Shown here piece by piece: positions 6,102-38,702 of a DNA stretch of 40,144 nucleotides. The stretch lies in the NCBI GenBank assembly GCA_030611745.1, contig JAUWPF010000001.1, forward strand, positions 1 to 40,144, given 5' to 3'. This DNA comes from Chloroflexota bacterium (GTDB lineage: Bacteria > Chloroflexota > Dehalococcoidia > Dehalococcoidales > JAUWPF01). Every line of letters begins with the position of its first letter. Position 1 is the first letter of the stretch. A program made the position numbers and the translations under genes. The notes below the pieces were generated by a model that saw only the letters and a list, made by a program, of their open reading frames with translations, was not told the origin of the DNA and searched no databases.

Positions 6102-6125
6102 CTCTTTGAACCTCCTTAAATTTGA

Positions 6126-6473: not shown

Positions 6474-6496
6474 GCCCCCTTACTTATCCCTTCCGG

Positions 6497-7900
6497 TTAG
6501 CTTTTCCGCATGGTAACAAAGTCCGGGTAGGCTGGAGTGCCGTGCTCGGGTATATCCAGACCCTGAAGTTCCTCTTCGGGAGATATGCGGACACCGAAAG
6601 CCTTGTCCATTAGCTTAAAGGTTAGGTACCCCGTACCGAATGCCCAGGCAAAAACTACTATGCAGCTGATAAACTGGGCGAGTAGCTGTTCACCACCGCC
6701 GCCGTAGAGTAGTCCGGTAACATAAGGTGCCTCAACTGAATAATTACCGTAGGTGCCATCGGCAAAGAAACCAAGGCTCAGCAGTCCCCATAGCCCACAG
6801 GTACCATGCACACTTATGGCGCCCACCGGGTCGTCTATCCCCTTAGCTTCAAGGAACTTGACACTGGCATACATCAGCCCTCCGGCAATAAGACCGATTG
6901 CAATGGCCGCCCAGCCTTCTACCCAGGCACAGGGAGCAGTAATCGCAACCAGGCCTGCTACCGCGCCGTTTAAAGCCATACCGGTATCCCATTTCTTGGT
7001 TCTCCATTTAGCTATAAGTAATGCTGAGAGTGTTGCCGCTGCCGCTGCCAGGTTGGTATTGACAGCGATAACCGCTATTCTCAGGTGATGGGCGTTACAG
7101 GTGCTGCCGGAGTTAAAGCCAAACCAGCCAAACCACAGGATGAAGACCCCCAGGGCAGCCAGCACTATACTGTGGCCCGGGATTGCCCGCGGCTTGCCAT
7201 CTCTATCATACTTGCCAAACCTGGGTCCGAGAACCATTGCCCCGGCCAGGCCAACGAAGCCACCGATAGCATGGACCACCCCCGAACCGGCGAAGTCTAC
7301 AGCCCCCAATCCGAAGGGCAGTTGAGAGAGCCAGCCCCCTCCCCAGACCCAGTGACCATAGATGGGGTAAATAATGGCACTGACTACTATGCTGTAGATA
7401 AAATAAGCCTTGAACTTCAGCCGCTCGGCAACAGCTCCGGAGACGATGGTAGCGGCTGTAGCGCAGAAGACCAGCATCCAGAACATATTGAGATATTTAT
7501 CTACATCATAGTAATCACCGAGCATAAGCCAGCCTTCGGTGCCCCAGAGGCCGTGCCAATCACCACCCATCATTATGGCGTAACCGATGATGAAAAAGAC
7601 GAGCGAGCCAGTGACATAATCCATCAGATTCTTGGTCATCAAATTGGTGGCGTTCTTGGCCCGACAAAATCCCGCCTCCAGCATAGCAAAGCCAGGCTGC
7701 ATGAACATTACCAGGAAGGCGCAGACCAGTATCCACACATAATCTACCGCCGCATCCGCTGTCCCTCCTAGCCCAGTGGGGTCAGCAGCCAGAGCTATAC
7801 TGCCTCTCATTGCTGCCCACGCCAGCCATACCAGGCAGACGAGGCTGAGGGTTAATCCTACTCTTACTACTATCCTCATCACATTGCTTCTCAGATTCAT
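6497..7900 (-). CDS. amt: ammonium transporter (Amt family)
   Basis: 467 aa polytopic membrane protein with Amt signatures (DFAGSGVVHAIGGFVGLAGA, ISVHGTCGLWGLL). GGAGGA Shine-Dalgarno 6 nt upstream of the ATG. Confidence 0.95.
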   Translation of the reverse strand: MNLRSNVMRIVVRVGLTLSLVCLVWLAWAAMRGSIALAADPTGLGGTADAAVDYVWILVCAFLVMFMQPGFAMLEAGFCRAKNATNLMTKNLMDYVTGSLVFFIIGYAIMMGGDWHGLWGTEGWLMLGDYYDVDKYLNMFWMLVFCATAATIVSGAVAERLKFKAYFIYSIVVSAIIYPIYGHWVWGGGWLSQLPFGLGAVDFAGSGVVHAIGGFVGLAGAMVLGPRFGKYDRDGKPRAIPGHSIVLAALGVFILWFGWFGFNSGSTCNAHHLRIAVIAVNTNLAAAAATLSALLIAKWRTKKWDTGMALNGAVAGLVAITAPCAWVEGWAAIAIGLIAGGLMYASVKFLEAKGIDDPVGAISVHGTCGLWGLLSLGFFADGTYGNYSVEAPYVTGLLYGGGGEQLLAQFISCIVVFAWAFGTGYLTFKLMDKAFGVRISPEEELQGLDIPEHGTPAYPDFVTMRKS

Positions 7901-7984
7901 AGCTATCCTCCTCTCTAAAAGAAGGATAACAGCCAGATGTTTCCAACAGATTACAGCCAGATTAAATCTATGTTACGGAAATTA

Positions 7985-9502
7985 TTAATTAGAGATACCG
8001 GAGGAGAACCCGCCTCTCCACCTACCCATGGATTCAACCTCCCCCTCGGTGTTGAAGAAGTCCCTGAATATTTTGAAGTAGTAAAGCTCTTCCTTGGATG
8101 AAATTCCAACCCAATCAAATTGCCTTTTCGCTTTATCGAATTCAGCGTCCGATATTTCATCCCCGGCAACCTCTATGAGTAGCCGCTCTGAGCCGCAGCC
8201 AGCGGCAAATTCCATCTTGGTTCTCCACAGAACCTCATCGGGTAAGTAGCCAGTGAATGCCTGCCTCAGGAGCCACTTTTCAATATCATCCTTTCCGTTG
8301 TTTGATACCTTCAAGCCGGGGTCAACAGACATCGCATATTCCACGAGGTCTATATCAAGAAACGGCACTCTTCCCTCGATAGAGTGTGCCATGGTGGCGC
8401 GGTCTACCCTCTGGAGGTTCATATTGTGCAGCCCGGTGAGAATCCTCATTGATTCTCTATGGACCTCTGCCTCACTGGCAAATTGCTTGATGTAGTGATA
8501 GCCGGCAAATATCTCGTCCGCTCCCTCACCGGTAAGTATGACCTTCACGTAGTCCCCGGCCAGCCGCGAGACGAAGTAGGTTGGAATGGCGCTTCGCACC
8601 AGAGGAGGGTCGAAGGATTCGAGGTGGTATATAACATCGGGCAACACCTTGATTATCTCGTCTCGGTCGTATACATATTCGTGGTGCTCGGTGCCCAGGA
8701 AACCGGCAACCTTTCTGGCATATCCCAGGTCGGTAGCCCCTTCTACCCCCACAGAGAAGGTATCCAGGTGGTCAAAGTGCTGCTTCGATACGGCGCATAT
8801 TAAGCTGCTATCAATGCCACCACTGAGAAAGCAGCCTAACGGGACATCAGACATCCAGCGCTTCTGCACTGCTTTACTCAATCTCCGGTGTAGCCCCTCG
8901 GTTATCTTGTCTATATCCTCTTCCCAGCACTCGATCTCCGGGAGCCGGTAGTATTGAACCAGCCCTTCTTTCGAAGAGTAGTAGTGCCCGGGAAGGAACT
9001 CCTGAATGCTATCTACTACTCCCTCCAGTGCCTTAATTTCAGAGGCGAAGAAGAGGCAGCCATCCTTCTGCCCCTGATACAGGGGCTTTATCCCCAGTGG
9101 GTCTCGGGCAACAAAGATATCCCTTCCGTCGTAGAGCACAAAGGCAAACATCCCGTCCAGCCTTGAAACCGATTCTTCTCCCTCTTCCTCAAAGAGATGA
9201 AGGAGCACCTCGGTATCTGAATTGGTGCGGAAGTGGTGTTGAGAGAGTTCATCTTTCAGTGTCAGGTAGTTGTAAATCTCACCGTTGCATATAACACATT
9301 TTTGCCCATCCTCAGCGAATATCGGCTGCCTGCCGCCGGCCACATCTATTATGGAAAGCCTTCTTTGCCCCAGGGCAATATTGCTATCCACATAGGTATC
9401 ATGGTCATCCGGACCGCGGTGAGACAACCTATCCAGCATGGTATCCAGATAGGGCGCCCACTGGCCGGCATTATCTCCATAGATGGCAATAATTCCACAC
9501 AC
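7985..9502 (-). CDS. asnB: asparagine synthase (glutamine-hydrolysing)
   Basis: 505 aa. N-terminal Ntn amidotransferase start MCGIIAIYG and PP-loop motif FLSGGIDSSLI. Confidence 0.9.
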   Translation of the reverse strand: MCGIIAIYGDNAGQWAPYLDTMLDRLSHRGPDDHDTYVDSNIALGQRRLSIIDVAGGRQPIFAEDGQKCVICNGEIYNYLTLKDELSQHHFRTNSDTEVLLHLFEEEGEESVSRLDGMFAFVLYDGRDIFVARDPLGIKPLYQGQKDGCLFFASEIKALEGVVDSIQEFLPGHYYSSKEGLVQYYRLPEIECWEEDIDKITEGLHRRLSKAVQKRWMSDVPLGCFLSGGIDSSLICAVSKQHFDHLDTFSVGVEGATDLGYARKVAGFLGTEHHEYVYDRDEIIKVLPDVIYHLESFDPPLVRSAIPTYFVSRLAGDYVKVILTGEGADEIFAGYHYIKQFASEAEVHRESMRILTGLHNMNLQRVDRATMAHSIEGRVPFLDIDLVEYAMSVDPGLKVSNNGKDDIEKWLLRQAFTGYLPDEVLWRTKMEFAAGCGSERLLIEVAGDEISDAEFDKAKRQFDWVGISSKEELYYFKIFRDFFNTEGEVESMGRWRGGFSSGISN

Positions 9503-25412: not shown

Positions 25413-27854
25413 CTAGACCAGTCCCACCGGGTCAACGTCCACTGTCCATCCCTGGGGGATGGTTAAGTGGGAAAGAAGGGCAGAGGGCTCCGCGCCGCGG
25501 AGGATAATCTGCCAGCGAAACCTGCCCCGCAGCCGGTGAATAAAAGCCGGGGCAGGCCCGATCAGGCTCAAGTCGGCTATTCCCCTGGCTTCTGTTTCGG
25601 CGATGAGCAGTTGCTGCATCCTTTCCGCCTCCCGCTGGCACAGGATATCATTGGGATGGCTGCAGGTAAGGAGAACAAGCCGGCTGAAGGGCGGGTTATG
25701 GAACTTGCGGCGATAGTTAATTTCCCGCTCGTAGAAAGAGGCATAGTCATGTCCGGCTGCCGCCTGGATGACGTAGTGGTCGGGAGAGTAAGTCTGGATG
25801 ATAACCTGTCCCCCCAGAATGCCTCGCCCGGCCCTCCCCGCCACCTGGCATAGTAATTGAAAGGTCCTCTCCCCGGCCCGGAAGTCAGGCAGGTTCAAGC
25901 CGGTATCGGCGTTGATTACCCCGACAAGGGTAACCAGTGGTAGGTCCAGTCCCTTGGCAACCATCTGGGTGCCAATAAGAATATCAGCCTCATGGGCACG
26001 AAACCTGGCTAATATCTCCTGGTGGGAGTGCTTCCCCCGGGTAATATCGCTATCCCAGCGTGCCAGTTTTGCCTGGGGGAAGGCATAACCTGCTTCCTGT
26101 TCCAGCTTCTGGGTGCCAGCGCCTAAAAACTTCAGGCTGCGGCTCCGGCATCGGGGGCAGGCCTGGGGCAGCGGCACTCGGTAGTTACACTGGTGGCAGA
26201 CTAAAATATTCTCAATTAAATGGTAGGTAAGGGTAACCTCACAGCGCCTGCAGCGGAGGACAAAGCCGCAGTGGCGACACTGAATAAATGTCGCCCCTCC
26301 CCTCCGGTTGAGGAAAAAGATTACCTGTTCCCCTTTTGCCACTGCCTCGGCTGTGGCCTGGGTGAGAGACCGGCTGAAAAGGCTTCTGTTTCCCGCTTTG
26401 AATTCTTCCTTCTGGTCAACTATTGCAACCCGGGGCAGGGGGGAGCCTTCACTGGGGACAACCCGCTCCGGAAGCCGGAGTAAGCGGTAGTCTCCGGTTT
26501 GGGAATGATAGAAGGGTTCAACATCGGGGGTGGCGCTGCCGAGAATGACCACGGCGCCGTTGAGTTCCGCCAGCTTAATGGCAACCTCACGGGTGTGGTA
26601 GCGGGGTGATTTATCGTGCTGCTTGTAGGTCCATTCGTGCTCCTCATCAATAACGATGAGGCCTAAATCGGGTTGGGGAGCAAAGATGGCACTGCGGGGG
26701 CCGATAACGACATCGCATTTCCCGTTTCTTATTCGCTGCCACTCGTCGAACCGCTCCCCCAGGGAGAGCTTGCTGTGGAGGATACCTACCCTGCCGGGGA
26801 AGCGTGACGAGAAGCGCTCTATGGTCTGGGGGGTGAGGGCAATCTCCGGCACCAGGGCGATGCCCCGTTTTCCCAGCCTTGTCGCCTCGGCCAGGGCCTG
26901 CAGGTAGACCTCGGTCTTACCACTCCCGGTAACCCCGTGAAGGAGGAAAACGGATGGTCTGGCACTGCCCTTTACTACTCGGGTCAGGCTGGACTTGATT
27001 GAACTCAGGGCTGACTCCTGGTCGGTGGTAGGGAGTAGCGGCTGAGAAGGGGTGATACCCTCATCGGAAATGGGTCTGCGTCTTACCTCGACCGGCTGAA
27101 GCCGGACTAAGCCCTTGCCGGCCAGGGCGCTGGCAATTGCCGTTGAGCAACCGGTGCTCTTCCTGACCTCGGCCAGGGGCAGCGGCCCGGTTTGCCGGGC
27201 CAGAAAGTGAAGGAGGTCTGCCTGCTTACTCGCCCGCTGCTTGCGGAGACTCTCTACCGCCTGCCGGGCCTGGGGGGGCGGTACTGCCAGCTCCAGGTAG
27301 GGTACCGTCTTTGGTCTTACCTTGACCTTCTCCAGCTCATAGACTCTGGTCACCAGGCCTCGGCTAACCAGCTGCGATATGAGCCGCCGCCCGCGCTTTC
27401 CTCCCAGTACCTTCTCTATCTCTTTCAGGCTGGCCTTGCCCCGCCTCCCTACCAGTTCCAGCACCACCTTTTGTTCGGGGGTGAGGGGGGGTGTACCTGT
27501 CCCGGGATTTGGAGAACTGCAGATAAAGGTAACTGTCCGGCGTTCAAAACCCGGCGGCAGCATCAGGGCCACGGCGTCGAAGAGGGGGGACAAATAATAC
27601 TCGCTGAGCCATCTGGACAGCCTTACCTGGGATGGGGTTAAAATGGGGTGAGGGTCGATGACCCCGCTTATTTCCCTGACCTCGTCTACTGAGGGATAGG
27701 GATTGACCTCGAGGATGATACCCTGGAGAAGCTTGTTCCCAAAGGGAACCCACACCGCTTGCCCGACAGCGGCGTTCAGCCCGAGGGGTATTGCGTAGCT
27801 GAAGGTGTGGCGCTGTGCCAGCGGTGAATTAACACTAACCTCAGCATACTCCAT
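25413..27854 (-). CDS. priA: primosomal protein N' (replication restart helicase PriA)
   Basis: 813 aa. Walker A LLHGVTGSGKTEVY, DEEH box (VIDEEHEW), and a Cys-rich zinc region (CRHCGFVLRCRRCEVTLTYH...CHQCNY...CPRC). Confidence 0.93.
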   Translation of the reverse strand: MEYAEVSVNSPLAQRHTFSYAIPLGLNAAVGQAVWVPFGNKLLQGIILEVNPYPSVDEVREISGVIDPHPILTPSQVRLSRWLSEYYLSPLFDAVALMLPPGFERRTVTFICSSPNPGTGTPPLTPEQKVVLELVGRRGKASLKEIEKVLGGKRGRRLISQLVSRGLVTRVYELEKVKVRPKTVPYLELAVPPPQARQAVESLRKQRASKQADLLHFLARQTGPLPLAEVRKSTGCSTAIASALAGKGLVRLQPVEVRRRPISDEGITPSQPLLPTTDQESALSSIKSSLTRVVKGSARPSVFLLHGVTGSGKTEVYLQALAEATRLGKRGIALVPEIALTPQTIERFSSRFPGRVGILHSKLSLGERFDEWQRIRNGKCDVVIGPRSAIFAPQPDLGLIVIDEEHEWTYKQHDKSPRYHTREVAIKLAELNGAVVILGSATPDVEPFYHSQTGDYRLLRLPERVVPSEGSPLPRVAIVDQKEEFKAGNRSLFSRSLTQATAEAVAKGEQVIFFLNRRGGATFIQCRHCGFVLRCRRCEVTLTYHLIENILVCHQCNYRVPLPQACPRCRSRSLKFLGAGTQKLEQEAGYAFPQAKLARWDSDITRGKHSHQEILARFRAHEADILIGTQMVAKGLDLPLVTLVGVINADTGLNLPDFRAGERTFQLLCQVAGRAGRGILGGQVIIQTYSPDHYVIQAAAGHDYASFYEREINYRRKFHNPPFSRLVLLTCSHPNDILCQREAERMQQLLIAETEARGIADLSLIGPAPAFIHRLRGRFRWQIILRGAEPSALLSHLTIPQGWTVDVDPVGLV

Positions 27855-27884
27855 CCCGCATCCTCCAACGAGGTAGGGCTGGGT

Positions 27885-28247
27885 TTAGTCCCTGGGCGCT
27901 GCTTTCGCGGTCCGTTTTTCCTTGATGCGGGATGCCTTACCGCTCAAGCCCCGCAAGTAGTAAAGCTTGGCCCGGCGTACCTTTCCGTGGCGCATAACCT
28001 CCACCTTTTCCACCAGCGGTGAATGCAGGGGGAAGGTACGCTCGACGCCGATACCGGAGGCGACTCGCCTTACGGTGAAGCTGGCCCCCGCCCCACCGCG
28101 CCGCAGCCGGATTACCACCCCTTGAAATATCTGGATGCGTTGCCTTTAGCCTTCAACCCCCTTGGCACTGACCTTTACCGTGTCACCGGGGGCAAGGGGC
28201 GGAATATTAGGGTTTGTTTTGACTTCGACTAGTGATGCCATATCCAT
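27885..28247 (-). CDS. rplS: 50S ribosomal protein L19, reading frame interrupted by one in-frame TAA (28146-28148)
   Basis: The track ORF 27885-28118 is only the C-terminal two thirds of L19 ([46 protein letters not shown]). Reading further upstream in the same frame gives M(DM)[47 protein letters not shown]. This is collinear with B. subtilis L19 (...[27 protein letters not shown]...). Confidence 0.85.
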
Positions 28248-29013
28248 TGACTACATCTCCTCTATTAGCTCCCGACTCCTTTAGCTTGTCGATCGACCCT
28301 GCTTCTTTTAAAGACAGGTTAGCCTTGTCCAGCAGTTCGGGACGGCGTTGCAGGGTACGCTGGATAGCCTGCTGGCGGCGCCACCTGGCAATCCGAGCAT
28401 GGTTTCCTGAAAGCAGGACCTCGGGTACTGACCATTCCCTGTATACTTCAGGGCGGGTGTATTGGGGGTACTCCAGAAGCCCGCTGGCATGAGAGTCGTC
28501 CACCGGTGAAGCCTCCGAACCAAGGACCCCGGGCAGTAGCCTGACCACGGCATCCACTACCACCATGGCCGCCAGCTCACCGCCACTGAGCACATAGTCA
28601 CCAATACTGACCTCATCAGTGACCAGGTATTGTCTTATTCGTTCGTCGACCCCTTCGTAGTGCCCGCAAATGAGTATCAGATGGCTGTGTTGTGATAGCT
28701 CGCGGGCGATTCGCTGGCAGAAGAGACGGCCCTGGGGGGTGAGCAAAATTACGGGCAGGGGGCGAGACTCCTTGTTACCACTCTCTGCTTTCAACTTCTC
28801 TACCGCCTCGAAAATGGGCTCGGGCTTGAGTACCATACCCGCGCCGCCCCCGTAAGCGTAGTCGTCAACGGTGTGGTGCCTGTCATGAGTGTAGTCCCGA
28901 ATGTTATGCAGGCTAATGCTAATCCGTTTCTGGTCGACAGCCCGTTTCAGGATACTGGCGTTAAAGGGCCCGCCAAACATCTCCGGAAACAGGGTCAAGA
29001 TATCAATATGCAC
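28207..29013 (-). CDS. trmD: tRNA (guanine37-N1)-methyltransferase
   Basis: 268 aa with canonical TrmD motifs ([48 protein letters not shown]). The C-terminal tail overlaps the rplS start. Confidence 0.95.
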
Positions 29014-29018
29014 TGACG

Positions 29019-29543
29019 CTAGTCCTTCCCTGCCTGGTGCTCGGTTATCTCCCCCTTGATAATTCCCACGGCATGGGGAATGGCGGGCAGGATTACCTCA
29101 AGGCACTCCCGGACTGCCCTCGGGCTGCCGGGCAGGTTGATGATGAGGCATTTTCCCCTGACTCCAGCCGTGGCCCGGCTCAGGATGGAAAATGGTGTCG
29201 TGTCGAAAGTCCTCATCCTCATTGCCTCGGCCAGGCCGGGCACGACCCTGTCCACTATGGAAAGGGTTGCCTCAGGAGTAACGTCACGCTGACTGAGGCC
29301 GGTGCCACCGGTGGTCAGGATAACGTCCATTCCTCCTTCATCCGCCCACCGGGCCAGTTTGCTAGCGATGATGTCTCTCTCATCGGGGACAATCTCATAC
29401 TCAACCACGTTGCTCTCCAGTCGGGCCAGGCTTTCCCTGATTGCCTGGCTGCTCTTATCCTGGCGCTCTCCCCGCCACCCCTTATCACTGATGGTAAGTA
29501 TACCCAGATTAAGCATAATGCCGCCTTTTGGAACAAGCTTCAT
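29019..29543 (-). CDS. mogA: MogA/MoaB-family molybdenum cofactor biosynthesis protein
   Basis: 174 aa with [10 protein letters not shown] and [19 protein letters not shown]. The true start may be the internal ATG at 29516 (MLNLGIL...). Confidence 0.85.
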
Positions 29544-29778
29544 TTTACCACATATGGGTTGTATCGCAAAATCAAGTGTTCCTTCCCTTCCATTTCTACC
29601 AGCGCCGCAACTGCATCGCTATCAAGGACACAATTCGCTACTTTGTTGGCTCAGGGTATTTATTTCCCAGCATAGCAGGCACTTAATCAGGATACAGTCA
29701 CTATGGAGCCAGTGACAAATGTAAGCTTGTCGTAAATCCGGGTGATTGGAGTGTTTGGTTCAAGGGCTCGAAAATTGC

Positions 29779-29807
29779 TTCATTTATTGTGGCGTCATCT
29801 GTATAAT
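29779..29807 (+). promoter_or_regulatory. possible promoter of the ABC-F gene
   Basis: TATAAT at 29802-29807, 16 nt before the ATG. Weak -35 TTCATT at 29779-29784 with a 17-nt spacer. Confidence 0.35.
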
Positions 29808-29823
29808 TACTTAGGTTGTAGAA

Positions 29824-31809
29824 ATGCTGGGTATTTCAGACATATCAAAGTCTTACGGGGATCAGACTCTATTCAGTGCTGTTACCTTTAATATGGGGGC
29901 AAGGGACCGCATAGCTATCATCGGGCCGAACGGCTCAGGGAAGACGACGCTGTTCGGTATTATCGCTGGGAATGTGCTCCCCGATTCCGGCAGTGTAAAT
30001 ATGCAGAGGGGAACTACAATTGGCTATCTGGAACAGGAAATTAGACCCTCTTCTGAGAGGCAATTGCTTGATGATGTCGCTAACGCGTCAACTAGGATAA
30101 GCAAGCTGGCGCATAAGATACAGGTTCTCCAAGAAGAATTGGCAGGGGGAGTGGATGGGGAAAGTTTGAAAGAACTCCTGCATGAGTTGGGTGAACTTCA
30201 GCATAGCTTCGAGTTTGCCGGTGGCTACAGCGCCGAACATGAGGCCAGGGCTGTCCTTTCCGGGTTAGGATTTGTGGAGTCTGACTTCCACCGCCCTCTA
30301 ACTGACTTCAGCGGTGGGTGGCTGATGCGGGCTGCACTGGCCAAACTTCTTCTTCTTTCCCCTGATGTACTCCTGCTTGATGAGCCGACAAACCATCTCG
30401 ATCTGGAGTCCTGTATTTGGTTTGAGCGTTACCTGGGAAGCTATCGTGGGGCGGTACTGGTCGTTTCGCACGACCGGGCATTCTTGAATCGAGTGGTAAG
30501 CAAAGTGCTTGCCATCGAGCAAGGTAAGTGCATCTTTCACCGTGGCAATTACGATAGTTTCGTTATAGCCAGAAAGAAAGAAATTGAGGTTACGGAAGCT
30601 ACGGCCAAAAGACAGAATCTCAAGATAAAGAAGGAGATGCGCTTCATCGAACGATTCCGTGCTAAGAATACCAAGGCAACTCAGGTTCAGAGCCGAATGA
30701 AACAGCTGACAAAGATGGAAAGAGTGGTAATCCCCAGAGCAACCAGGAAAATGCAATTCTCCTTCCCCGAACCGGTACGGAGCGGAGAGAGGGTTATCAC
30801 CCTCAATCATATCCTCAAGTCTTACGATGCAAATGTCGTTTACCGCGACCTTAATCTGGTCCTTAATCGTGGAGATAGGGTAGCTCTGGTAGGCCCCAAC
30901 GGTGCCGGTAAAACGACCCTGCTCAAGATCCTGGCCGGAGTGCTTCCTTTCGATAAGGGCGAGCGTAAATTAGGACATAATGTCATCACTGCCTATTATG
31001 CCCAGTACCAGCTTGAGCTTCTCGATCCAACAAATAATATACTGACTGAGCTGCAGAGCGTAGCTCAAGATGAACCAGAGCAGAAACTGAGGAGGATTCT
31101 CGGCGCCTTTCTCTTCAGCGGTGATGATGTATATAAAAAGATATCCGTCCTTTCCGGGGGTGAGAAGAGCCGCTTGGTGCTAACCAAGATGTTGATTCAA
31201 TCGGCCAATTTCTTGCTGATGGACGAGCCTACTAACCATCTTGATATTGCCTCGCGGGAGATACTGGCAGATGCCCTTGAAGCCTATCGCGGGAGCCTTT
31301 GTTTTATCACCCACGACCGGACGCTAATTCGCCAGATTGCAAATAAGATCATCGAGATAAGGGATGGCAACCTACAGGTATTAACCGGAAATTATGAAGA
31401 CTATCTCAATTGGAAGGAGTCTTTAGGACAAGGAGTTTCAAAGATTTCCGAAGTGCCGATGTCCTTAGCTATAGGAAAAGGTGCGACAAATAATAGACTG
31501 CGCCAGCGTAAGCTAATCGAGGGGGAACTAAGGAATAAGTATTACCGGGAGAGTGCCCCCACTAGAAAGCGAATAGCTGAAATCGAGGCAGAGCTTTCGG
31601 AGCTTGAGGCACAGTTTAGAGAAGTCGAGAGCTTGTTTTCCGATGAAGATCATTATGGATGTAGTGCGCAGGTTATCGCCACCATAGAGAAGCATCACGG
31701 ACTGAAGGAGATTATAAGTTCGCTTATAGAGGAATGGGAGCGGCTTTCTATAGAACTTGAGAGGATGAAACGAGAGTTTGAGAAAGCGAAGAGTACCACC
31801 GAGACTTAA
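29824..31809 (+). CDS. ABC-F family ATPase (two ABC cassettes, no membrane domain, C-terminal coiled coil)
   Basis: 661 aa. Two Walker A motifs (GPNGSGKTTLF; GPNGAGKTTLL), two ABC signatures (FSGGWLMR; LSGGEKSR), two Walker B motifs (LLLDEPTNHLD; LLMDEPTNHLD). Charged helical tail. Confidence 0.9.
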   Translation: MLGISDISKSYGDQTLFSAVTFNMGARDRIAIIGPNGSGKTTLFGIIAGNVLPDSGSVNMQRGTTIGYLEQEIRPSSERQLLDDVANASTRISKLAHKIQVLQEELAGGVDGESLKELLHELGELQHSFEFAGGYSAEHEARAVLSGLGFVESDFHRPLTDFSGGWLMRAALAKLLLLSPDVLLLDEPTNHLDLESCIWFERYLGSYRGAVLVVSHDRAFLNRVVSKVLAIEQGKCIFHRGNYDSFVIARKKEIEVTEATAKRQNLKIKKEMRFIERFRAKNTKATQVQSRMKQLTKMERVVIPRATRKMQFSFPEPVRSGERVITLNHILKSYDANVVYRDLNLVLNRGDRVALVGPNGAGKTTLLKILAGVLPFDKGERKLGHNVITAYYAQYQLELLDPTNNILTELQSVAQDEPEQKLRRILGAFLFSGDDVYKKISVLSGGEKSRLVLTKMLIQSANFLLMDEPTNHLDIASREILADALEAYRGSLCFITHDRTLIRQIANKIIEIRDGNLQVLTGNYEDYLNWKESLGQGVSKISEVPMSLAIGKGATNNRLRQRKLIEGELRNKYYRESAPTRKRIAEIEAELSELEAQFREVESLFSDEDHYGCSAQVIATIEKHHGLKEIISSLIEEWERLSIELERMKREFEKAKSTTET

Positions 31810-31824
31810 GTTTTTGGAGGTCTG

Positions 31825-31968
31825 ATGTATCTATTCGACACAGACATCTTGAGCAATCTTCTGCGGCGCACACCATCCACGGTGCTGATTGCGAAACTGG
31901 CTTCGGTGCCGCCTGAACAGCAGTTCACCTCCGCCATTACTCTGGGCAGGCTTTATTTTTGGGTGTGA
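31825..31968 (+). pseudogene. truncated PIN-domain (VapC-like) toxin remnant, 47 codons
   Basis: Not in the ORF track (too short). GGAGG 4 nt upstream of the ATG. Translation is MYLFDTDILSNLLRRTPSTVLIAKLASVPPEQQFTSAITLGRLYFWV-stop. This matches only the first third of a typical ~130-aa VapC (MxLLDTNxLSEL...SAITxxEL). No vapB-like gene precedes it. Confidence 0.55.
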
Positions 31969-32078
31969 ACCACTCATGCATTGTTAGTGCCACCTGCCTG
32001 TGTGTCTTATCGCCTTCACTTAACAAGATGAGTTGTTGTTACTTGAGGCTACGGCCTAACTATACCGGGGTTCGATTG

Positions 32079-32675
32079 CTATGCGACTTCCCCTCCCTCC
32101 TCTTGGACAGCAAGTAAGGGGTTAACGACTAACTCTTTCAGCTTCTCGCTAGAAGTTATTTGATAAAGTGGTATAGTGAAGGTCTCAGAACCCTTTAAAT
32201 TTTCCGAGTATTTGGAACCGCCAGTCCTTCGCCATCCCTCAAGGGCCTCATGCGACTTTCCGAAGAACCAGTATTTGCACATGTAATAATCATAATTCTT
32301 GTTGGCCACTTTAGCCGTCATAGGTTTCTTGTATTTAATGCAGCCGGCCGAGATCAGAGGCTCATCAATATCAGTGGGTAGGCTGGTATTTAGGTCCGAT
32401 GCAAAGTGAATGCTTACGAAAAGAATCTGGTCGATGCTCGGGTCATCACCACCTGAGGCTATGGGTACGTAGAAACGCACGGCCCATCGCGCATACCATC
32501 GCTCCGGCGTATTCAACGAGTATGAAAAACCAGAAGGTGCGGTAGTATTTGTTGGCTCCCACCCATGCTCTCCCATCAGGCGGTCGGCATCCATAAGCAG
32601 AAGCTGTCCCTGCTTGTATAATTTTGCTAGAGACTCAAATAAAGCCCTTGTTGGGCTTCCCATAGTTTCAGTCAT
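32079..32675 (-). CDS. hypothetical protein, 198 aa, no family recognised; downstream partner of the predicted nuclease
   Basis: The ATG overlaps the upstream stop in an ATGA junction (32672-32675). GAGGTGA Shine-Dalgarno sits about 6 nt upstream. No TM segment or known motif spotted. The region looks more AT-rich than its flanks. Confidence 0.6.
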   Translation of the reverse strand: MTETMGSPTRALFESLAKLYKQGQLLLMDADRLMGEHGWEPTNTTAPSGFSYSLNTPERWYARWAVRFYVPIASGGDDPSIDQILFVSIHFASDLNTSLPTDIDEPLISAGCIKYKKPMTAKVANKNYDYYMCKYWFFGKSHEALEGWRRTGGSKYSENLKGSETFTIPLYQITSSEKLKELVVNPLLAVQEEGGEVA

Positions 32676-33478
32676 CTCATCACCTCGAATACATAATCGA
32701 TATCTAACGACTCAGGAATAACCGGCCAAGAATACTTGGTTGGAGTAAGGTGGTAGAAGTCAGGTAAAACGAAACACTCAGTAATGGGCTCCACTCCGCC
32801 GAACATTATTAGTCCTTTTCTCAACAATAATGCGAGCATATCTGCCATTACAGCCCTATTCTCCGGGACGCTTTCTTGCTCAAGACTTTGCTCCAGAATG
32901 GGTGGTAAAAATCTCCACGATACCCAAAATATTTCACCATCTTTGTTACGTTTGCGCCGATATTCGGCCAGTGACTTCACCAGCAGGTCTCGTGGAATTC
33001 CCATGTTTTGGGTTACGAAAAGAAGCGCACGTGAAGCGATTTCCAAATGTGTCCCCCAGCCTAAAGTGGCACAGGACACTGCGTCTAGATTATCCAGTTC
33101 ACGAGCTAACTGGTCGTTTGGTTCGGCTCGCTCGTCTTCCTCGCTGGAAAGCCCCGAATAGTACTTGGCTTCAATCACTACCAAGTGCACCTGGTTTTCT
33201 TCTGTTTCAAGACAAAGTACCACATCTGGTTCACAAGGAGTGCGGTTTGCTAATTTCAGCCAAGGCCAGAATGAATAGTGAACCCTGATGACTTCACCCT
33301 GGATTGTCAGGATATTGCCATGAAGCGAGTGGGCTGTCTGCAAGAATGGAATTAAGGCTTTCTGAGCTGGCAGATATCTCATACAGCCAAAAATGTCAGA
33401 AGTAAGGAGGTCCTCCATGCGCTCGGAAAGGTTGGTGCCTGTTTCCGAGATTTTCCCTCGTATCTCCGCTATGCTCAT
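32672..33478 (-). CDS. predicted PD-(D/E)xK-fold nuclease, 268 aa
   Basis: Motif layout is an N-terminal acidic helix (ERMEDLLTSDIFGCMRY), then CEPD85VVLCLE, then after 17 residues LVVIE103AK105YY, then a downstream DQLAREL helix. That is the classic D...(D/E)xK arrangement. The C-terminal ~100 aa is unassigned. Confidence 0.65.
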   Translation of the reverse strand: MSIAEIRGKISETGTNLSERMEDLLTSDIFGCMRYLPAQKALIPFLQTAHSLHGNILTIQGEVIRVHYSFWPWLKLANRTPCEPDVVLCLETEENQVHLVVIEAKYYSGLSSEEDERAEPNDQLARELDNLDAVSCATLGWGTHLEIASRALLFVTQNMGIPRDLLVKSLAEYRRKRNKDGEIFWVSWRFLPPILEQSLEQESVPENRAVMADMLALLLRKGLIMFGGVEPITECFVLPDFYHLTPTKYSWPVIPESLDIDYVFEVMR

Positions 33479-33486
33479 CGGCTCTA

Positions 33487-33515
33487 ATTATACGACAACG
33501 TTATCTGCTGAGCAA
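33487..33515 (-). promoter_or_regulatory. possible promoter giving a leaderless transcript of the two-gene module
   Basis: Minus strand reads TTGCTC (33515-33510), 17 nt, TATAAT (33492-33487). Only 8 nt separate the -10 from the ATG at 33478, and there is no Shine-Dalgarno. Confidence 0.35.
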
Positions 33516-33660
33516 TTGTCAGGATTGGAGTGAACCCCTGAGGCTGGACACAATGGGTTAGGAAGATTAGGAAGGTCTGGCAGGGTCAGAGTATAATCGA
33601 TAGGAGAAAGGACCTTATACTCTCCAATGAGTGAAAGTCATAAGTCATCTAAAAGTGACC

Positions 33661-34500
33661 CTACTGTACCTCATTCGCCTGCCTTAAATTCCATATCACT
33701 TCGAAGAAATGCCGCGTCCACTCATTGGCTACCTTCCGGTTAGCGCAGAAGGTGATGCGTAAGTCAGGATGAAGGGCATATAGCTCGGCAATTGCTTTGG
33801 CGCAGAAGCCGGGATTATAGTGATGCAGCTTCTTGGGGTTCAGAAAATCGGCATAAGGGGCCTCGATTACCAGGGCATGGTTATCATGGGCAGCCAGCTC
33901 GGCAAGCCTCTGGTGCAGTACCGGCATCGTTCCGAAGTCGGCCAGCAGGTTGTCCAGTGTCTTGCGCTCCACTACCGCCAGCATCTTATCCCCATCTATA
34001 AGTGCATAATCACCGGCAGAAATAGTGCCGCGCTCAGTAACCGCGCCGGGGAAACGCCACGGGTATTTCTCGTTGCTGTGTATTCGAACAACCATTTCGG
34101 TATCGCCCTTGCGTGAGACCAGTTTAAAGGCAGGGCGATGCTGTTCGATGGACCTCTGGGTCAGCCAGAAGATTTGCTCGTAGCTCTCACCCGGTCTGCC
34201 CTTGTACGTCTTCTTCAGGAAGAGAAAATCGCAGCGCTTGTAGCGCTTGCGGTCGAGCACAACGGAGATACGGCGGCCGCGCTCATTGAAGGCGATGATA
34301 TCCACCCGCTCCAGTTCTTCCAACACCTCATCGGGTGGTGGCGGCTCGTCTTCACGCAGGCAGAAAATATGCCTGCCCGCCGCCGGCCATCGGTCCTGCG
34401 TACGGAGTACCAGCCACAGCTTATCCCCTCTCAGAATCTGCAGGCGGTAAGGGAAGCGGTCACTGACACATCGCTCTAGAATCCAGGTTCCTTTTATCAC
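33661..34500 (-). CDS. ERCC4 (XPF/Mus81-type) nuclease-domain protein with an unrecognised N-terminal domain
   Basis: 279 aa. The C-terminal half carries GDYALIDGDKMLAVVERKTLDNLLADF (GDY-x12-ERK-x2-D), then ALVIEAPY. The N-terminal ~135 aa has no motif I recognise. GTG start; TATAAT (34513-34508) lies 7 nt upstream. Confidence 0.7.
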   Translation of the reverse strand: MIKGTWILERCVSDRFPYRLQILRGDKLWLVLRTQDRWPAAGRHIFCLREDEPPPPDEVLEELERVDIIAFNERGRRISVVLDRKRYKRCDFLFLKKTYKGRPGESYEQIFWLTQRSIEQHRPAFKLVSRKGDTEMVVRIHSNEKYPWRFPGAVTERGTISAGDYALIDGDKMLAVVERKTLDNLLADFGTMPVLHQRLAELAAHDNHALVIEAPYADFLNPKKLHHYNPGFCAKAIAELYALHPDLRITFCANRKVANEWTRHFFEVIWNLRQANEVQ

Positions 34501-34648
34501 TGTGATGATTATACCGCAAAAGTCAAATCCGCAACGAACTTATCATCGAATCGTTCAATTGCCCTGTTAGTCCTCTCCCGAGTTTGCGCTGGAAGTCTGT
34601 GAATCTGTCGGTGGAAAAGGCGGTCTTTAAAAAATTTAGCCAAAAGAC

Positions 34649-34679
34649 TTGACAAAGAGGGGCAATTGTGTTTTACAAT
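34649..34679 (+). promoter_or_regulatory. mraZ (dcw cluster) promoter candidate
   Basis: TTGACA at 34649-34654 and TACAAT at 34674-34679 (spacer 19; or TTACAA with spacer 18), about 55 nt upstream of the mraZ ATG. Confidence 0.5.
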
Positions 34680-34683
34680 GGTA

Positions 34684-34703
34684 GAAAGTGGTGGAAAGTG
34701 GTA
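34684..34703 (+). promoter_or_regulatory. tandem GAAAGTGGT(G/A) repeats, candidate MraZ operator
   Basis: GAAAGTGGTG GAAAGTGGTA is a perfect 9-nt repeat with 10-bp period, immediately downstream of the -10. MraZ is known to bind direct repeats of this periodicity in its own promoter region. Confidence 0.5.
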
Positions 34704-34731
34704 AACTAGGGGAACAAGTGTAGGCTGAGAT

Positions 34732-35160
34732 ATGTTTTTTGGTGAATTTGAGTACAAGGTAGATGAAAAGGGGAGGGTGCCTGTCCCGCCCCGCTTCAGG
34801 AGGGAGCTAAAGGAGGGGATAGTACTGGTGGCGGGGGTGGAGAAGTGTATCACGGCTTATCCGCTAGCCGAGTGGAAGAAGCTGGCGGGTACCCTTACTA
34901 CCGGCTCGTTGACACCGAATGATAAGATGAGGCGCTTGAGCCGGGCTGTTTTCGCTGCTGCCTTTAGCCTCAACCTTGATGGGCAGGGCAGGGTAGCGCT
35001 CCCGGTGCCGCTGCGGCAGCATGCCGGGATTGAGGACGAAGTAATTATCGCCGGGGTCAATAGCTATCTTGAACTGTGGGATAAAGCTGAATGGGAGGCG
35101 GAGAAGGCTATTAGCCGGGAGCAGGCGTGGCAGGATATAGAAAGCCTGGAGAGGCGCTGA
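34732..35160 (+). CDS. mraZ: transcriptional regulator MraZ
   Basis: 142 aa with two SpoVT/AbrB-like halves ([23 protein letters not shown]...; [19 protein letters not shown]). Confidence 0.95.
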
Positions 35161-36215
35161 TGGTTACAGATATGTCAACCTCCAGCCATACCCCGGTTCT
35201 GCTTGAAGAAACGGTCCAGGCACTGGCGGTTCAGCCTGGAGGGCGTTATATTGATTGCACGGTTGGTGGTGGTGGGCATGCGGCTGCCATTCTGGACCGC
35301 AGTTCCCCCGGGGGGCAGCTTCTGGGGATTGATGCTGACCCGGAGGCGATAAAAGTAGCGAGGACAAGGCTTGAAGCCCACAGCGGCTCGAGCCTGTTTG
35401 TTAATGAGAACTTTTTAAATCTACAGGCAAGCTGCATCAGGTACGATTTCTTCCCGGTACATGGTATTCTCTTTGACCTGGGCCTGTCATCACTTCAGCT
35501 TGGTAGCCCGGCTCGCGGCTTCAGCTTTCAGCATGAGGGGCCGCTGGATATGCGTTTGAGCCCGGCTCAGGAGCTTACCGCTGATGAGATCGTCAACACC
35601 TATTCCGAGAACGAGTTGGCCCGGCTGATAGGGACGTATGGTGAGGAAGGCTACAGCCGTCAAATAGCCCGCCGTATCGTGCAGAAACGCCCCTTGCGGA
35701 CTACCCTTGAGCTGGCCCGGGTGGTAGAACAGGCTACCGGGGGCAGAAGGGGTAAAATCCACCCCGCCACCAGGACCTTTCAGGCACTGAGGATAGCCGT
35801 TAATCAAGAGCTTGAGCATCTGGAGGCAGCGCTTGAACAGGCAACCAGTCTTCTTGGTTTTCAGGGCAGGCTGGTTGTCATAAGCTATCATTCCCTGGAA
35901 GACCGCATCGTGAAGCGGTTTATGCTTAAGGAAGCCAGGGACTGTATCTGCCCTCCGGGTACACCGAGCTGTGTCTGTGGGCATACTGCCTCTTTAAGGT
36001 TACTTACCAGAAAGGTTATCAGGCCGTCTCCGGCTGAGGTTGGGTTTAATCCGCGCAGCCGCAGCGCCAGATTGAGAGCGGCGGAGCGCTTACTTTCCCG
36101 TGACGAACTGGATGAGACGATTGAGAAGCTGTGTTTTTCGGTTGCTGGCAGTAGCACCGTGTGGAAGCGTCCCGCTTTGCTCAAGGAAGTGAGAAGGGCC
36201 TTTTCCGCGGTCTAG
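35160..36215 (+). CDS. rsmH: 16S rRNA (cytosine1402-N4)-methyltransferase
   Basis: [34 protein letters not shown] and [11 protein letters not shown] motifs. I prefer the ATG at 35160 (overlapping the mraZ TGA) to the track start at 35127. About 45 aa longer at the C-terminus than typical RsmH. Confidence 0.93.
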
Positions 36216-36315
36216 ATTTAGATAAAGCTGATAGAGTGGTGGAAGGGGGGCAGGAAAATGTGATGGTGAACATAGATTAAAGTGAGTCAAAAATCTGTTA
36301 GCAAGGAGGGGGTAG

Positions 36316-37530
36316 ATGAAAAGAACGACTTTAGCTTCGATAGATGTTGGCACCACCAAGGTGTGCACTACCATTGCTGATGTAACCAGTGATGGGGGTA
36401 TCCGGGTTGTGGGTGTGGGGGTGACCCCGTCCCGTGGTTTGCACAAAGGGCTGGTGGTCAACATCAACGAGGCCGGGGAGTCAATCAGGGAGTCGGTGAG
36501 AAAAGCGCAACAGGCCAGTGCCACCAGGATAGAATCAGCCTATGTTGGTGTAACAGGAAGGCATGTCAGTTCGCTGAATAACCGCGGGGTAGTCGCTATT
36601 ACCCGAAATGACCGGTTGGTGCGCCCTGATGACCTGAGACGGGTACTTGAGTGTGCCCGGAGTATTAAAGTTCCTAACGACAGGAAGCTGCTCCATGTTA
36701 TTCCCCGGGGTTATGCCGTTGATGGTCAGGTGGGAGTCAAGAACCCGGTGGGGATGCATGGCTTCAGGCTGGATGTGGAAACCCACATCATCACTGCCGC
36801 CACGACCTCGGTTCAGAATCTGGTGAAGTGTATCCGGGGCATCGGAATTGATATCGACGACCTCATCCTTGAACCATTAGCCAGCAGTGAGGCAGTGCTG
36901 ACCGAGGACGAGAAGCAGGTTGGGGTTATCCTGGCTGATATCGGTGGAGGTACCACAGATATCGCTGTCTTCAAAGAGGGGAGCATCTGGCATACCTCTA
37001 TTCTGCCGGTGGCCGGTTACCAGCTCACCAGGGATGTGGCTATCGGTCTGGGGCTACCGTTTGATGTCGCTGAGGAGATGAAGAAGAGATACGGTAGTGT
37101 CATGCCAGTTTACGAGAGCAAGGTTGAAACCAATCCTGCAATATCACAGGATGGACACGGCGTTTCCTATCAGGACCTGTGTGATATTATCAGAGCCAGG
37201 ATGGAAGAAATTATGAGGCTTATCCTGCTGGAGATGCCGCGTGCTGACTATGAAACGCTGGTTCCGGCGGGGCTGGTGCTCACCGGTGGCAGCGCTAACC
37301 TTTCCGGCATAGAGGCGCTGGGGCGTGATGTGTTGCGGCTTCCCGTAAGGGTAGGTGTTCCGACCAATATGTATGGTATTACTGATTCTCTCCGCGACCC
37401 GGCGTATGCCACCAGCGTTGGTCTCTTGCTCTGGGGAGCAAAAAACGAGGGTGCGCATACCTGGCGTTCTGTCGGGTTTGCTACCAGGCTGCGGCGCTTA
37501 CTTTTCCGCATGAGGAAGCTATTTGTTTAG
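36316..37530 (+). CDS. ftsA: cell division protein FtsA
   Basis: 404 aa, actin-like ATPase (ASIDVGTTKVCTTIADV, ADIGGGTTDIAVF, LTGGSANLSGI). Confidence 0.95.
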   Translation: MKRTTLASIDVGTTKVCTTIADVTSDGGIRVVGVGVTPSRGLHKGLVVNINEAGESIRESVRKAQQASATRIESAYVGVTGRHVSSLNNRGVVAITRNDRLVRPDDLRRVLECARSIKVPNDRKLLHVIPRGYAVDGQVGVKNPVGMHGFRLDVETHIITAATTSVQNLVKCIRGIGIDIDDLILEPLASSEAVLTEDEKQVGVILADIGGGTTDIAVFKEGSIWHTSILPVAGYQLTRDVAIGLGLPFDVAEEMKKRYGSVMPVYESKVETNPAISQDGHGVSYQDLCDIIRARMEEIMRLILLEMPRADYETLVPAGLVLTGGSANLSGIEALGRDVLRLPVRVGVPTNMYGITDSLRDPAYATSVGLLLWGAKNEGAHTWRSVGFATRLRRLLFRMRKLFV

Positions 37531-37574
37531 CGCGATGATGAAAAAATCTGGAGTCGCAACGAAAGGAGGAGGAG

Positions 37575-38702
37575 ATGGCGAAAACAAGTTTTGTCCCTAA
37601 CCCGGCCAAGATCAAGGTTATTGGTCTGGGTGGTGGTGGTTGTAATGCGGTTACCCGTATGGTCAGAGAGGAAATCCAGGGCGTAGAGTTCATTGCCATG
37701 AATACTGATGCCCAGGCTCTGGCGATTACCGAGGCCCCGACTCGTATCCAGCTGGGAGAGAAGCTCACCCGGGGTTTGGGTGTGGGCGGCGACCATGCAA
37801 TGGGTCAGAAGGCTGCCGAGGAAAGTCGTGATGAACTCAAGGAGCTCGTTAACGGGGCTGATATGGTGTTTATCACTTGTGGTCTGGGTGGTGGTACTGG
37901 CACCGGGGCTGCCCCGCTGATTGCTGAAATATCTAAACAGAGCGGAGCTCTCACTATCGCCGTAGTTACCAAGCCGTTCACCTTCGAGGGTACTCATCGC
38001 ACCCAGGTGGCTGAAGAGGGAGTAGTGCACCTGTTGAGTAAGGTTGATACCCTGATTATTATCCCTAATGACCGCCTGCTTGACCTCTGTGACAAGAAGA
38101 CGGCAGTGGACAGTGCTTTCAGGCTGGCTGATGATGTGCTACGTCATGGTGTGCAGGCGATTGCGGAGGTTATCACCGTTCCCGGGTTGATTAACCTTGA
38201 CTTTGCCGATGTCAAGGCGGTGATGAGAGATGCCGGGCCGGCATGGATGAGCATAGGCAGGGGGTCAGGTCAGAGCCGGGCCACAGATGCGGCCAGGGAA
38301 GCCCTGGCCAGCCCGCTGCTGGATGTTTCTATCAACGGCTCAAAGGGTGTCTTATTCAATGTTGTTGGTGGTAGTGACCTCAGCCTGTTTGAGGTTAATG
38401 AGGCGGCTGAGGTAATTAGACAGGCGGTGGACCCTGATGCTAACATCATCTTTGGTGTGGCACATGACCCGGCGATGGATAAAGAGATAAGGATTACCCT
38501 GATCGCTACTGGCTTCGTTTCTAAGATGGGACTGCCGGGAAGCGAGGATGAGGATCTGAAACATCTCCTCAAAGGCCTGGATAACGAAGAGGAGCTGGAT
38601 ATTCCTTCCTTCCTGCGTCGCCCGCTGTTCAGCCACCGGCGCCAGGCAATAACACCGTCAACCAGGGTGGTTAGGTCGCCCTTGGGCACTGAAGTTCGGT
38701 AG
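37575..38702 (+). CDS. ftsZ: cell division protein FtsZ
   Basis: 375 aa with the tubulin signature [17 protein letters not shown], and a C-terminal DIPSFLRR peptide. Confidence 0.97.

Follow-up and report, generated by a model that had tools for sequence, protein, structure and literature searches.

Between a gene for an ABC-F protein and mraZ, positions 31810-34731 of a 40,144-nt stretch from a Chloroflexota bacterium (contig JAUWPF010000001.1; this whole stretch is the window below, and its numbering is used throughout) hold a gene remnant and three intact genes, and the question is whether these came as one acquired islet or have separate histories. A first-pass annotation of the locus had listed a 47-codon PIN/VapC remnant, a "PD-(D/E)xK pair", and an ERCC4-type nuclease gene, and we found gene content, positions, and strands to be as it described, with all three intact genes on the minus strand. 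On balance, we lean towards reading the interval not as one island but as a recombination-prone junction of functionally unrelated units in the chromosome of an uncultured Dehalococcoidales bacterium, among which a two-gene cassette, p268-p198, is a candidate nuclease module for defence or addiction.

The p268-p198 gene pair

The cassette takes its name from two open reading frames (ORFs) of 268 and 198 amino acids (aa), and is made up as follows:

31941-32078, minus strand: 3' flank of the p268-p198 cassette, common to the related locus L078 (blastn)
32079-32675, minus strand: p198, a 198-aa ORF (ORF list)
32672-33478, minus strand: p268, a 268-aa ORF (ORF list), with a 4-nt overlap (ATGA) with p198
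33479-33575, minus strand: p268 promoter segment, with TATAAT at 33492-33487; homology to L078 stops at 33575

Close homologues numbered 274 for p268 and 195 for p198. In the 78 p268-anchored metagenome loci, p198 comes directly after p268, either overlapping or abutting, wherever the contig extends past an intact p268; both genes are full length in 46 loci, and no intact p268 without p198 was found among them. Moreover, each of the remote p198 homologues examined is again preceded by a p268 homologue. Paired homologues were recognized in locus L167 (hhalign 97%), in Methanohalobium evestigatum (302 aa and 195 aa; hhalign 99.6%, E-value of 1e-23, and 32% identity), on a JGI contig (284 aa and 205 aa, with a 4-nt overlap), and on a Bacillus cereus megaplasmid (260 aa and 200 aa). 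The archaeal pair maps to about 340.7-342.2 kb of CP002069, and the plasmid pair of B. cereus FM1 carries the locus tags BG03_5714/5713. For p198, a tblastn search of plasmids returned no match, and the Bacillus partner was found by profile comparison only. Next to the M. evestigatum pair are a NERD+UvrD candidate, IS605, and integrases.

With regard to expression, the GAGG Shine-Dalgarno of p198 lies within p268 and the two genes overlap by ATGA, and on this arrangement p198 is translationally coupled to p268. A TATAAT hexamer is placed 8 nt before the p268 ATG, and likewise 7 nt before the start codon of the ERCC4 gene, neither of which has a Shine-Dalgarno, just as the first-pass annotation had noted; by our scoring (GGAG, GAGG, or AGGA), 21 of the 32 window ORFs do have one. 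TANNNT recurs at -14 (±1) in 50 of 62 distinct p268 upstream regions, with a motif resembling a Shine-Dalgarno in 3 of the 62, and we thus consider that the p268 promoter travels with the cassette and gives a predicted leaderless mRNA. Since ABC-F, mraZ, moaB, and def are also without a Shine-Dalgarno, its absence is not specific to the islet and marks operon-first genes rather than foreign DNA. We also noticed an imperfect palindrome, CTGACAATTGTTCAG, at 33508-33522, which overlaps the -35 region of the p268 promoter, is conserved across numerous loci whose flanks are unrelated, and might serve as an autoregulatory operator.

Several loci carry altered copies. Thus, 5'-only p268 fragments (residues 1-103 to 1-138) occur in L142, L144, L145, and L150 and are possibly decayed copies, while in L139 (685-1307) two p198 fragments in opposite orientation follow a p268 homologue, which may reflect a local inversion or duplication. 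Distances for p268 track those for p198 only moderately (r = 0.6), many pairs being discordant. As for a viral origin, this was rejected, given that IMG/VR held no relatives of p268 or the ERCC4 protein, GenBank phages none of p268, and PHROG no match for any islet protein except the VapC stub.

Genomic context of the pair

The surroundings of the pair are highly variable: the 57 upstream neighbours represent 51 families, and the 44 downstream ones 37. For the ABC-F control, which has the wider phylogenetic span, 47 upstream neighbours fall into 31 families and 43 downstream neighbours into 27. To characterize these surroundings, we took the 122 genes within ±2 positions of the pair and, as a control, 122 random ORFs from ABC-F loci. 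Foremost among the Pfam families of the pair's neighbours were N6_Mtase (5), N6_N4_Mtase (5), Eco57I (4), DEAD (4), and ResIII (3), with one each of BanI, EcoRV, TdeIII, Type ISP, C5 methylase, and AIPR, and the PADLOC matches were mad2 (5), PbeA (2), DrmMI (2), and type II and III methyltransferases. In contrast, the 25 commonest families of the control ORFs include no restriction-modification or defence family, and are metabolic and transport ones only. Members of the p268/p198 family thus have restriction-modification neighbours much more frequently than control genes do, an enrichment of the kind that defines association with defence islands.

The p268 and p198 proteins

In p268, the residues Asp85, Glu103, and Lys105 are invariant in 54 homologues, as well as conserved in the archaeal homologue and L167, and make up the catalytic triad of the PD-(D/E)xK superfamily; the N-terminal helix is also strongly conserved. 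Pfam matches to this superfamily stay below the gathering scores (PDDEXK_7, 17.7 versus 22.1 bits; PDDEXK_13, 13.6 versus 27 bits), and p268 relatives weakly match DUF4143, NERD, and UPF0102. In the AlphaFold2 model, the p268 core has a predicted local distance difference test (pLDDT) score of 85-95, and 11 of the 12 best Foldseek matches in the PDB are nucleases, mostly recognizable PD-(D/E)xK ones, albeit with E-values of 3.6e-3 or worse and low TM-scores. By sequence or profile, no PDB relatives were found for p268, p198, or the ERCC4 protein.

A profile search with p198 gave 306 clusters (at 50% identity), nearly all of them 180-205 aa long, though neither p198 nor 103 of its relatives match Pfam or PADLOC. 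Its AlphaFold2 model (pLDDT 76.5 and predicted TM-score 0.78) has a long N-terminal helix, a β-sheet, and a C-terminal helix. Searches of the PDB and BFVD with this fold returned nothing significant, the best matches being YbjN, with a chaperone-like fold (E-value of 0.86), and a viral protein (0.27), and the family alignment has no conserved catalytic constellation. The first-pass description of a "PD-(D/E)xK pair" therefore fits p268 alone, since p198 is without a nuclease motif. Both genes are under purifying selection, with median ratios of nonsynonymous to synonymous divergence (dN/dS) of 0.16 for p268 and 0.10 for p198, against 0.14 for ABC-F.

As regards composition, p268 and p198 have the lowest GC content overall and at third codon positions (GC3) among the 31 window ORFs analysed (0.470/0.483 and 0.476/0.508, respectively, versus window means of 0.534/0.596), and together with ABC-F (GC of 0.485) they are the lowest-GC genes in the window; the codon-usage distance is highest for p268. 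The compositional check proposed in the first-pass annotation thus picks out p268 and p198 as atypical, but not the ERCC4 gene, which is core-like (GC3 of 0.657).

Recombination at the cassette and its flanks

The locus differs from that of a close relative, the metagenome contig L078, in a telling way. L078 is 96.2% identical to window positions 25549-29609 (priA-trmD-moaB), after which 113 unrelated nt replace window 29610-31940. Its alignment then resumes over 31941-33575, i.e., p198, p268, and the p268 promoter, with 91.8% identity (blastn), and breaks off once more 97 nt ahead of the p268 ATG, where the sequence differs from the 3' end of the ERCC4 gene. Accordingly, the L078 pair adjoins moaB, and neither ABC-F nor the VapC stub is present. 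Between the window and L078, synonymous divergence (dS) is 0.09-0.10 in moaB, trmD, and priA and 0.055 in p198, while in p268 it is 0.6-0.9 for the first 420 nt and 0.13 for the 3' part. This jump in dS within the gene marks its 5' part as imported by recombination, with the breakpoint lying inside p268. The divergent part corresponds to window 33058-33478 (p268 codons 1-140), where synonymous divergence is 6-9 times the flank level. As a side observation, Bacillus and Niallia plasmids match p268 residues 3-127 only, and possibly the N-terminal nuclease core can be exchanged as a module.

That the window arrangement is not an artefact follows from independent assemblies of other samples (L156, L158, and L170-L176), which agree with it at 98.6-99.9% identity and have an identical gene order, thereby ruling out an assembly chimera.

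On its left side, the cassette is bordered by these features:

29776-31812, plus strand: relocated ABC-F segment, delimited by homology to relatives, with its own short-leader promoter (TATAAT at -22)
29824-31809, plus strand: ABC-F coding sequence (ORF list)
31813-31940, plus strand: vapBC relic, with the last ~4 vapB codons, a TGATG junction, and the first ~39 vapC codons
31825-31968, plus strand: 47-aa ORF, the VapC stub (ORF list)

The ABC-F gene had been taken for a conserved housekeeping flank, and this view did not hold, since ABC-F belongs to the variable segment. At the nucleotide level, more than 10 relatives (82-97% identity) align from precisely position 29776, 48 nt ahead of the ABC-F ATG, to 31812/3, so that the shared stretch includes the TATAAT at -22. 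The closest ABC-F loci are all from Dehalococcoidales or Dehalococcoidia metagenome-assembled genomes. As the window's neighbouring genes are absent from all 73 ABC-F loci (in species-representative genomes), ABC-F is not a stable anchor, and no empty site with ABC-F next to mraZ, as had been proposed, was seen among these 73 loci. None of the available loci is anchored on mraZ, and an exact-protein look-up with MraZ returned only the same strain. The relatives share with one another flanks that are missing from the window: upstream, there is a common sequence or, in several genomes, a divergent gene, which we take, from its motifs, to encode a SpoU-type methyltransferase. Directly after the ABC-F stop in relatives comes a 47-nt element, AAGGTTGTGAGTCAAACTAAAAGCCAGCATGTAACCCACTGAACAAT (L001, 11990-12036), which has the same position in L005, L053, L057, L065, and L071, with the genomes diverging after it, and which is absent from the window. 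The possibility that this element is a dispersed repeat was rejected, since in relatives it is confined to that single position; a 3' untranslated region, a terminator, or a recombination hot spot would each be conceivable. Overall, ABC-F moved here, and one relocation in the window's lineage accounts for all of the flank data. Apart from this, the closest species representative (L001, with an ABC-F 92% identical) has small unannotated ORFs and a 391-aa ORF upstream of ABC-F (5500-9400); the latter gave us the impression of a DNA-polymerase sliding clamp, which may point to a prophage.

At 31813, where the ABC-F homology has ended, the sequence TTTGGAGGTCTGATG resembles the 3' end of vapB with an overlapping TGA/ATG junction. 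The VapC identity of the 47-aa ORF, as first proposed, is supported by tblastn against annotated VapC toxins (2e-4, with 45% identity) and by PHROG 13721 (5.7e-5), with a further NCBIfam VapC match at 0.036 and none to Pfam PIN. Rather than a complete PIN domain with its acidic catalytic residues, ~39 PIN-derived codons are left. The similarity to VapC stops at 31941, inside the ORF, and there the homology to L078 restarts in a terminator-like T-run (preceded by a hairpin in L078), whereas the 3' end of the ORF, up to 31968, is unrelated sequence. Because the VapC similarity ends where the L078 homology resumes, the stub is what remains of a vapBC operon truncated at either end. Judging from its sequence, the remnant gene is non-functional, since ~30% of the toxin is left, vapB is nearly gone, and the tail is unrelated.

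The ERCC4 gene

To the right of the cassette are the following features:

33661-34500, minus strand: ERCC4-domain gene (279 aa), with a GTG start
34501-34731, both directions: divergent ERCC4/mraZ promoter region (sequence inspection)
34732 onwards, plus strand: mraZ, followed directly by rsmH, ftsA, and ftsZ

The designation as an ERCC4-type nuclease gene was upheld, with residues 151-264 of the 279-aa protein passing the Pfam ERCC4 gathering score (27.3 versus 24 bits). Gly163-Asp164 and Glu178-Arg179-Lys180 are invariant in its homologues, and the ERCC4 catalytic residues are thus in place; we take them to be the GDXnERK motif of this family. The protein ends ~15 residues past the ERCC4 domain, and no HhH family was found in the Pfam scan at E ≤ 0.1, so it is without a recognizable (HhH)2 dimerization domain. 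Its N-terminal domain of ~150 aa belongs to no known family, though it is conserved as strongly as the ERCC4 domain. On the basis of family membership, the protein is most likely a structure-specific repair or recombination nuclease.

Homologues of the gene number 946, with identities of 73% or more throughout the best 120, and it has a dN/dS of 0.08. Its neighbours are different in L076, L077, L163/L164, and L166, where neither the pair nor mraZ is close by. Its TATAAT is at 34513-34508, and a TATAAT near the start codon is found in four of five ERCC4 contexts. The nearest annotated relatives are "ERCC4 domain-containing proteins" from Rhodococcus and Mycobacterium plasmids (30-36% identity), encoded near toxin-antitoxin, ParA, or resolvase genes. 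Taken together, the gene is independent of the pair, conserved as a lineage gene across Dehalococcoidia, and core-like in composition. The suggestion that the three nuclease-related genes might cooperate is not supported here, as the pair is never found with the ERCC4 gene outside this strain; of the two branches first offered, independent cargo was the correct one. Separately, we noticed that many assemblies (L076, L163, L166, and L173-L176) end no more than a few hundred bases away from the ERCC4 gene or the ERCC4/mraZ spacer, which suggests strain heterogeneity in natural populations.

The mraZ flank and the wider window

The mraZ promoter has a TTGACA at 34649-34654 and a TACAAT at 34674-34679. 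Between this -10 box and the mraZ start codon is a tandem repeat, GAAAGTGGT (34680-34712), with two copies at a 10-nt period and a degenerate third, and it appears to resemble the AAAGTG-type MraZ operator boxes of other bacteria. The division and cell wall (dcw) cluster at 34732-38702 consists of mraZ-rsmH-ftsA-ftsZ, uninterrupted by ftsL, ftsI, or mur genes, and this reduced form presumably fits the peptidoglycan-less Dehalococcoidia. The rsmH start is ambiguous (35127-35160): the longest ORF begins from a GTG 34 nt inside mraZ, and in other assemblies gene callers place the start at the stop codon of mraZ (351 aa).

Large genes left of 29543 are all on the minus strand, with a negative GC skew, and those right of 34732 are all on the plus strand, with a positive one, so that the islet is located where orientation and GC skew switch (~29.5-34.7 kb). 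A replication origin as the cause of this switch is not supported, because there is no DnaA-box cluster (12 matches versus 7.7 expected, with none in intergenic regions).

The first-pass statement that integrases, transposases, and flanking direct repeats are lacking was borne out. No integrase or transposase family matched among the four islet ORFs scanned, with the interval's shorter ORFs not included in that scan; in the islet and its borders, no tRNA genes were found and no Rfam elements matched, and the search for att-like repeats at both borders, which had been recommended, gave nothing beyond chance. The interval is therefore without the integrase or transposase, tRNA target, and direct repeats by which integrative genomic islands are recognized. 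What stands of the small variable or defence islet first proposed is the variability of the locus (as L078 makes plain), the low GC of the pair, and the family's place beside restriction-modification genes, but not the notion of one islet.

Proposed mechanism and alternatives

In the reading we favour, the interval combines three units. The first would be the p268-p198 cassette (~31941-33575), self-contained and with its own leaderless promoter. From its leaderless bicistronic mRNA, p268 and p198 would be made in a fixed ratio through translational coupling. Here, p268 would be a Mg-dependent PD-(D/E)xK DNase, and p198 would bind it, either holding it inactive or directing it, until a signal from foreign DNA or infection leads to DNA cleavage by p268. 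The data show the gene pairing, the coupling, the placement of the promoter, the intact catalytic motifs, purifying selection, variable contexts, the enrichment of restriction-modification neighbours, and the recombinant import, and from there we infer the complex, the DNase activity, the trigger, and the defence role. This would make the pair a candidate module for defence against phages or plasmids that has addiction-like properties and that spreads and exchanges alleles horizontally. The second unit, the ERCC4 gene, would be a separate nuclease gene that is a neighbour here by chance. As for the third, the VapC stub, vapBC would have been broken when the ABC-F-bearing segment recombined in, with a second deletion removing the 3' end of vapC.

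Several points weigh against this reading. The defence role is a candidate one, and so is that of the catalogued system that p268 most resembles, PDC-M15 (see below). The window pair itself has no restriction-modification or other defence neighbour, and the neighbour control came from other loci (those of species-representative genomes rather than metagenome contigs) and was compared by family-level counts only. The diversity of contexts overstates mobility, because those of ABC-F and the ERCC4 gene vary too, in keeping with generally poor synteny. Moreover, constraint on the pair is on a par with that on the housekeeping gene for ABC-F (dN/dS of 0.10-0.16 versus 0.14), and its sequence identity falls off gradually inside a single bacterial class, as would also be expected of a lineage function passed on vertically. 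Lastly, the p268 model is of low confidence over 68 residues, and its Foldseek E-values are all weak.

A more specific version, which we put forward tentatively as possible, is that p268-p198 is an uncharacterized two-component immune system of bacteria and archaea (Chloroflexota, Bacillota plasmids, and Methanohalobium), in which a ~190-aa sensor or inhibitor would govern a PD-(D/E)xK DNase and the leaderless promoter would move with the cassette. The p198 fold would then be one without a counterpart among solved structures or predicted viral ones.

Alternatively, the pair could be a toxin-antitoxin-like addiction module, with p268 as a DNase toxin and p198 as its protein inhibitor, which persists selfishly and gives no phage defence. 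This we consider unlikely, even though two small coupled genes with an autonomous promoter, highly variable contexts with copies on plasmids, the possibly decayed 5'-only p268 fragments, and the adjoining vapBC wreck in the window would all suit such a module, as would a p198 with no catalytic constellation and a sole, very weak fold resemblance to YbjN. However, type II partners are typically smaller than either protein, and no DNA-binding antitoxin domain was found (HTH, RHH, and AbrB domains were looked for in p268 and p198). In addition, p198 is more constrained than p268, which is the reverse of the usual fast-evolving antitoxin, and the enrichment beside restriction-modification genes fits defence at least equally. 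Addiction and defence roles are, in any case, not mutually exclusive.

Rather less likely still, in our judgement, is that the pair is a vertically inherited housekeeping complex of Dehalococcoidia for repair or recombination, whose varied contexts stem from scrambled gene order. Such a function would go with purifying selection comparable to that of ABC-F, with hundreds of homologues of constant length and smoothly graded identity, and with the absence of p268 from the viral contigs and phage records searched and of PHROG matches; ABC-F and ERCC4 genes also change neighbours, and the L078 pair adjoins moaB as in the window. Yet homologous pairs reside in the mobile island of a methanogenic archaeon and on Bacillus megaplasmids, and in the window GC3 is lowest for the pair and codon-usage distance highest among the 31 ORFs. 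The 5' part of p268, with a dS 6-9 times the genome background, the enrichment of restriction-modification genes over controls, and the possible decayed copies also speak against it.

Finally, the idea that VapC remnant, pair, and ERCC4 gene arrived together as one acquired defence islet between stable housekeeping units, and may cooperate, is highly improbable and largely refuted by ERCC4 independence, ABC-F relocation, and the L078 arrangement: although the three intact genes are co-oriented against their flanks, both transcription units are predicted to be leaderless, the region differs from a 96%-identical relative, and distant ERCC4 homologues lie on actinobacterial plasmids near toxin-antitoxin genes, the ERCC4 gene is very widely conserved with core-like GC and codon use and in other strains is never beside the pair, integrase, tRNA, and att repeats are all lacking, ABC-F is no fixed flank but itself moved here, and the L078 pair occupies the same moaB-side site without ABC-F and with different sequence upstream of p268.

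Many candidate nuclease modules of this kind exist. If the favoured reading of p268-p198 as a working defence or addiction module is true, it would be a compact nuclease system whose unannotated partner family (306 clusters) is without counterpart in Pfam, PADLOC, or the PDB, and it would occur in an uncultured but environmentally dominant lineage as well as in cultivable Bacillus cereus-group and Methanohalobium strains. With its breadth across bacteria and archaea, its orphan partner fold, and these cultivable hosts, the pair is readily testable. The ERCC4 protein, with its novel N-terminal domain, is a candidate lineage-specific repair nuclease of relevance for Dehalococcoidia biology. For annotation, the lesson is that what looks like a tidy "islet" amid housekeeping genes may be the place where independent rearrangements meet, and that a seemingly core flank, in this case ABC-F, can be the piece that moved.

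Comparison with known systems

With VapBC type II toxin-antitoxin systems, the stub shares N-terminal ~39 residues that align with VapC, preceded by a vapB-like TGATG stop/start, but differs in that ~30% of the toxin remains, vapB is gone except for ~4 codons, and the tail is unrelated. The 279-aa protein resembles XPF, Mus81, and Hef in passing the Pfam ERCC4 gathering score and in its invariant GD and ERK residues, whereas no helicase or (HhH)2 domain was detected in it, and the ~150-aa N-terminal domain is its own.

For p268, the closest catalogued entry is PDC-M15A, the component of the candidate system PDC-M15 in PADLOC. The p268 protein matches four PDC-M15A hidden Markov models (E-values of 4.7e-10 to 6.4e-6), the archaeal homologue matches this entry too, and one p268 match is near full length (p268 residues 7-218 versus model positions 16-198 of 231). 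On the other hand, the similarity is remote (24-37 bits) and mostly in the N-terminal ~100 residues, and the p198 family matches no PADLOC model. PDC systems were added to PADLOC as untested candidates (10.1101/2024.01.29.577857), and we found no paper mentioning PDC-M15. On these profile comparisons, the pair would be a distant variant of the untested PDC-M15A entry, with a partner family that appears not to be catalogued anywhere.

Among known PD-(D/E)xK defence effectors and restriction endonucleases, p268 stands apart in having no family-threshold match and no helicase, ATPase, or SAVED partner, its partner being instead a ~190-aa protein without a recognized fold. What it has in common with Shedu SduA, Hachiman HamA, Cap4, ACE1/Cas4, and type II restriction endonucleases is the invariant D...ExK triad, and its top Foldseek matches, all with weak E-values, include an R2 endonuclease domain, Shedu, ACE1, BstEII, Cap4, HamA, and PspGI.

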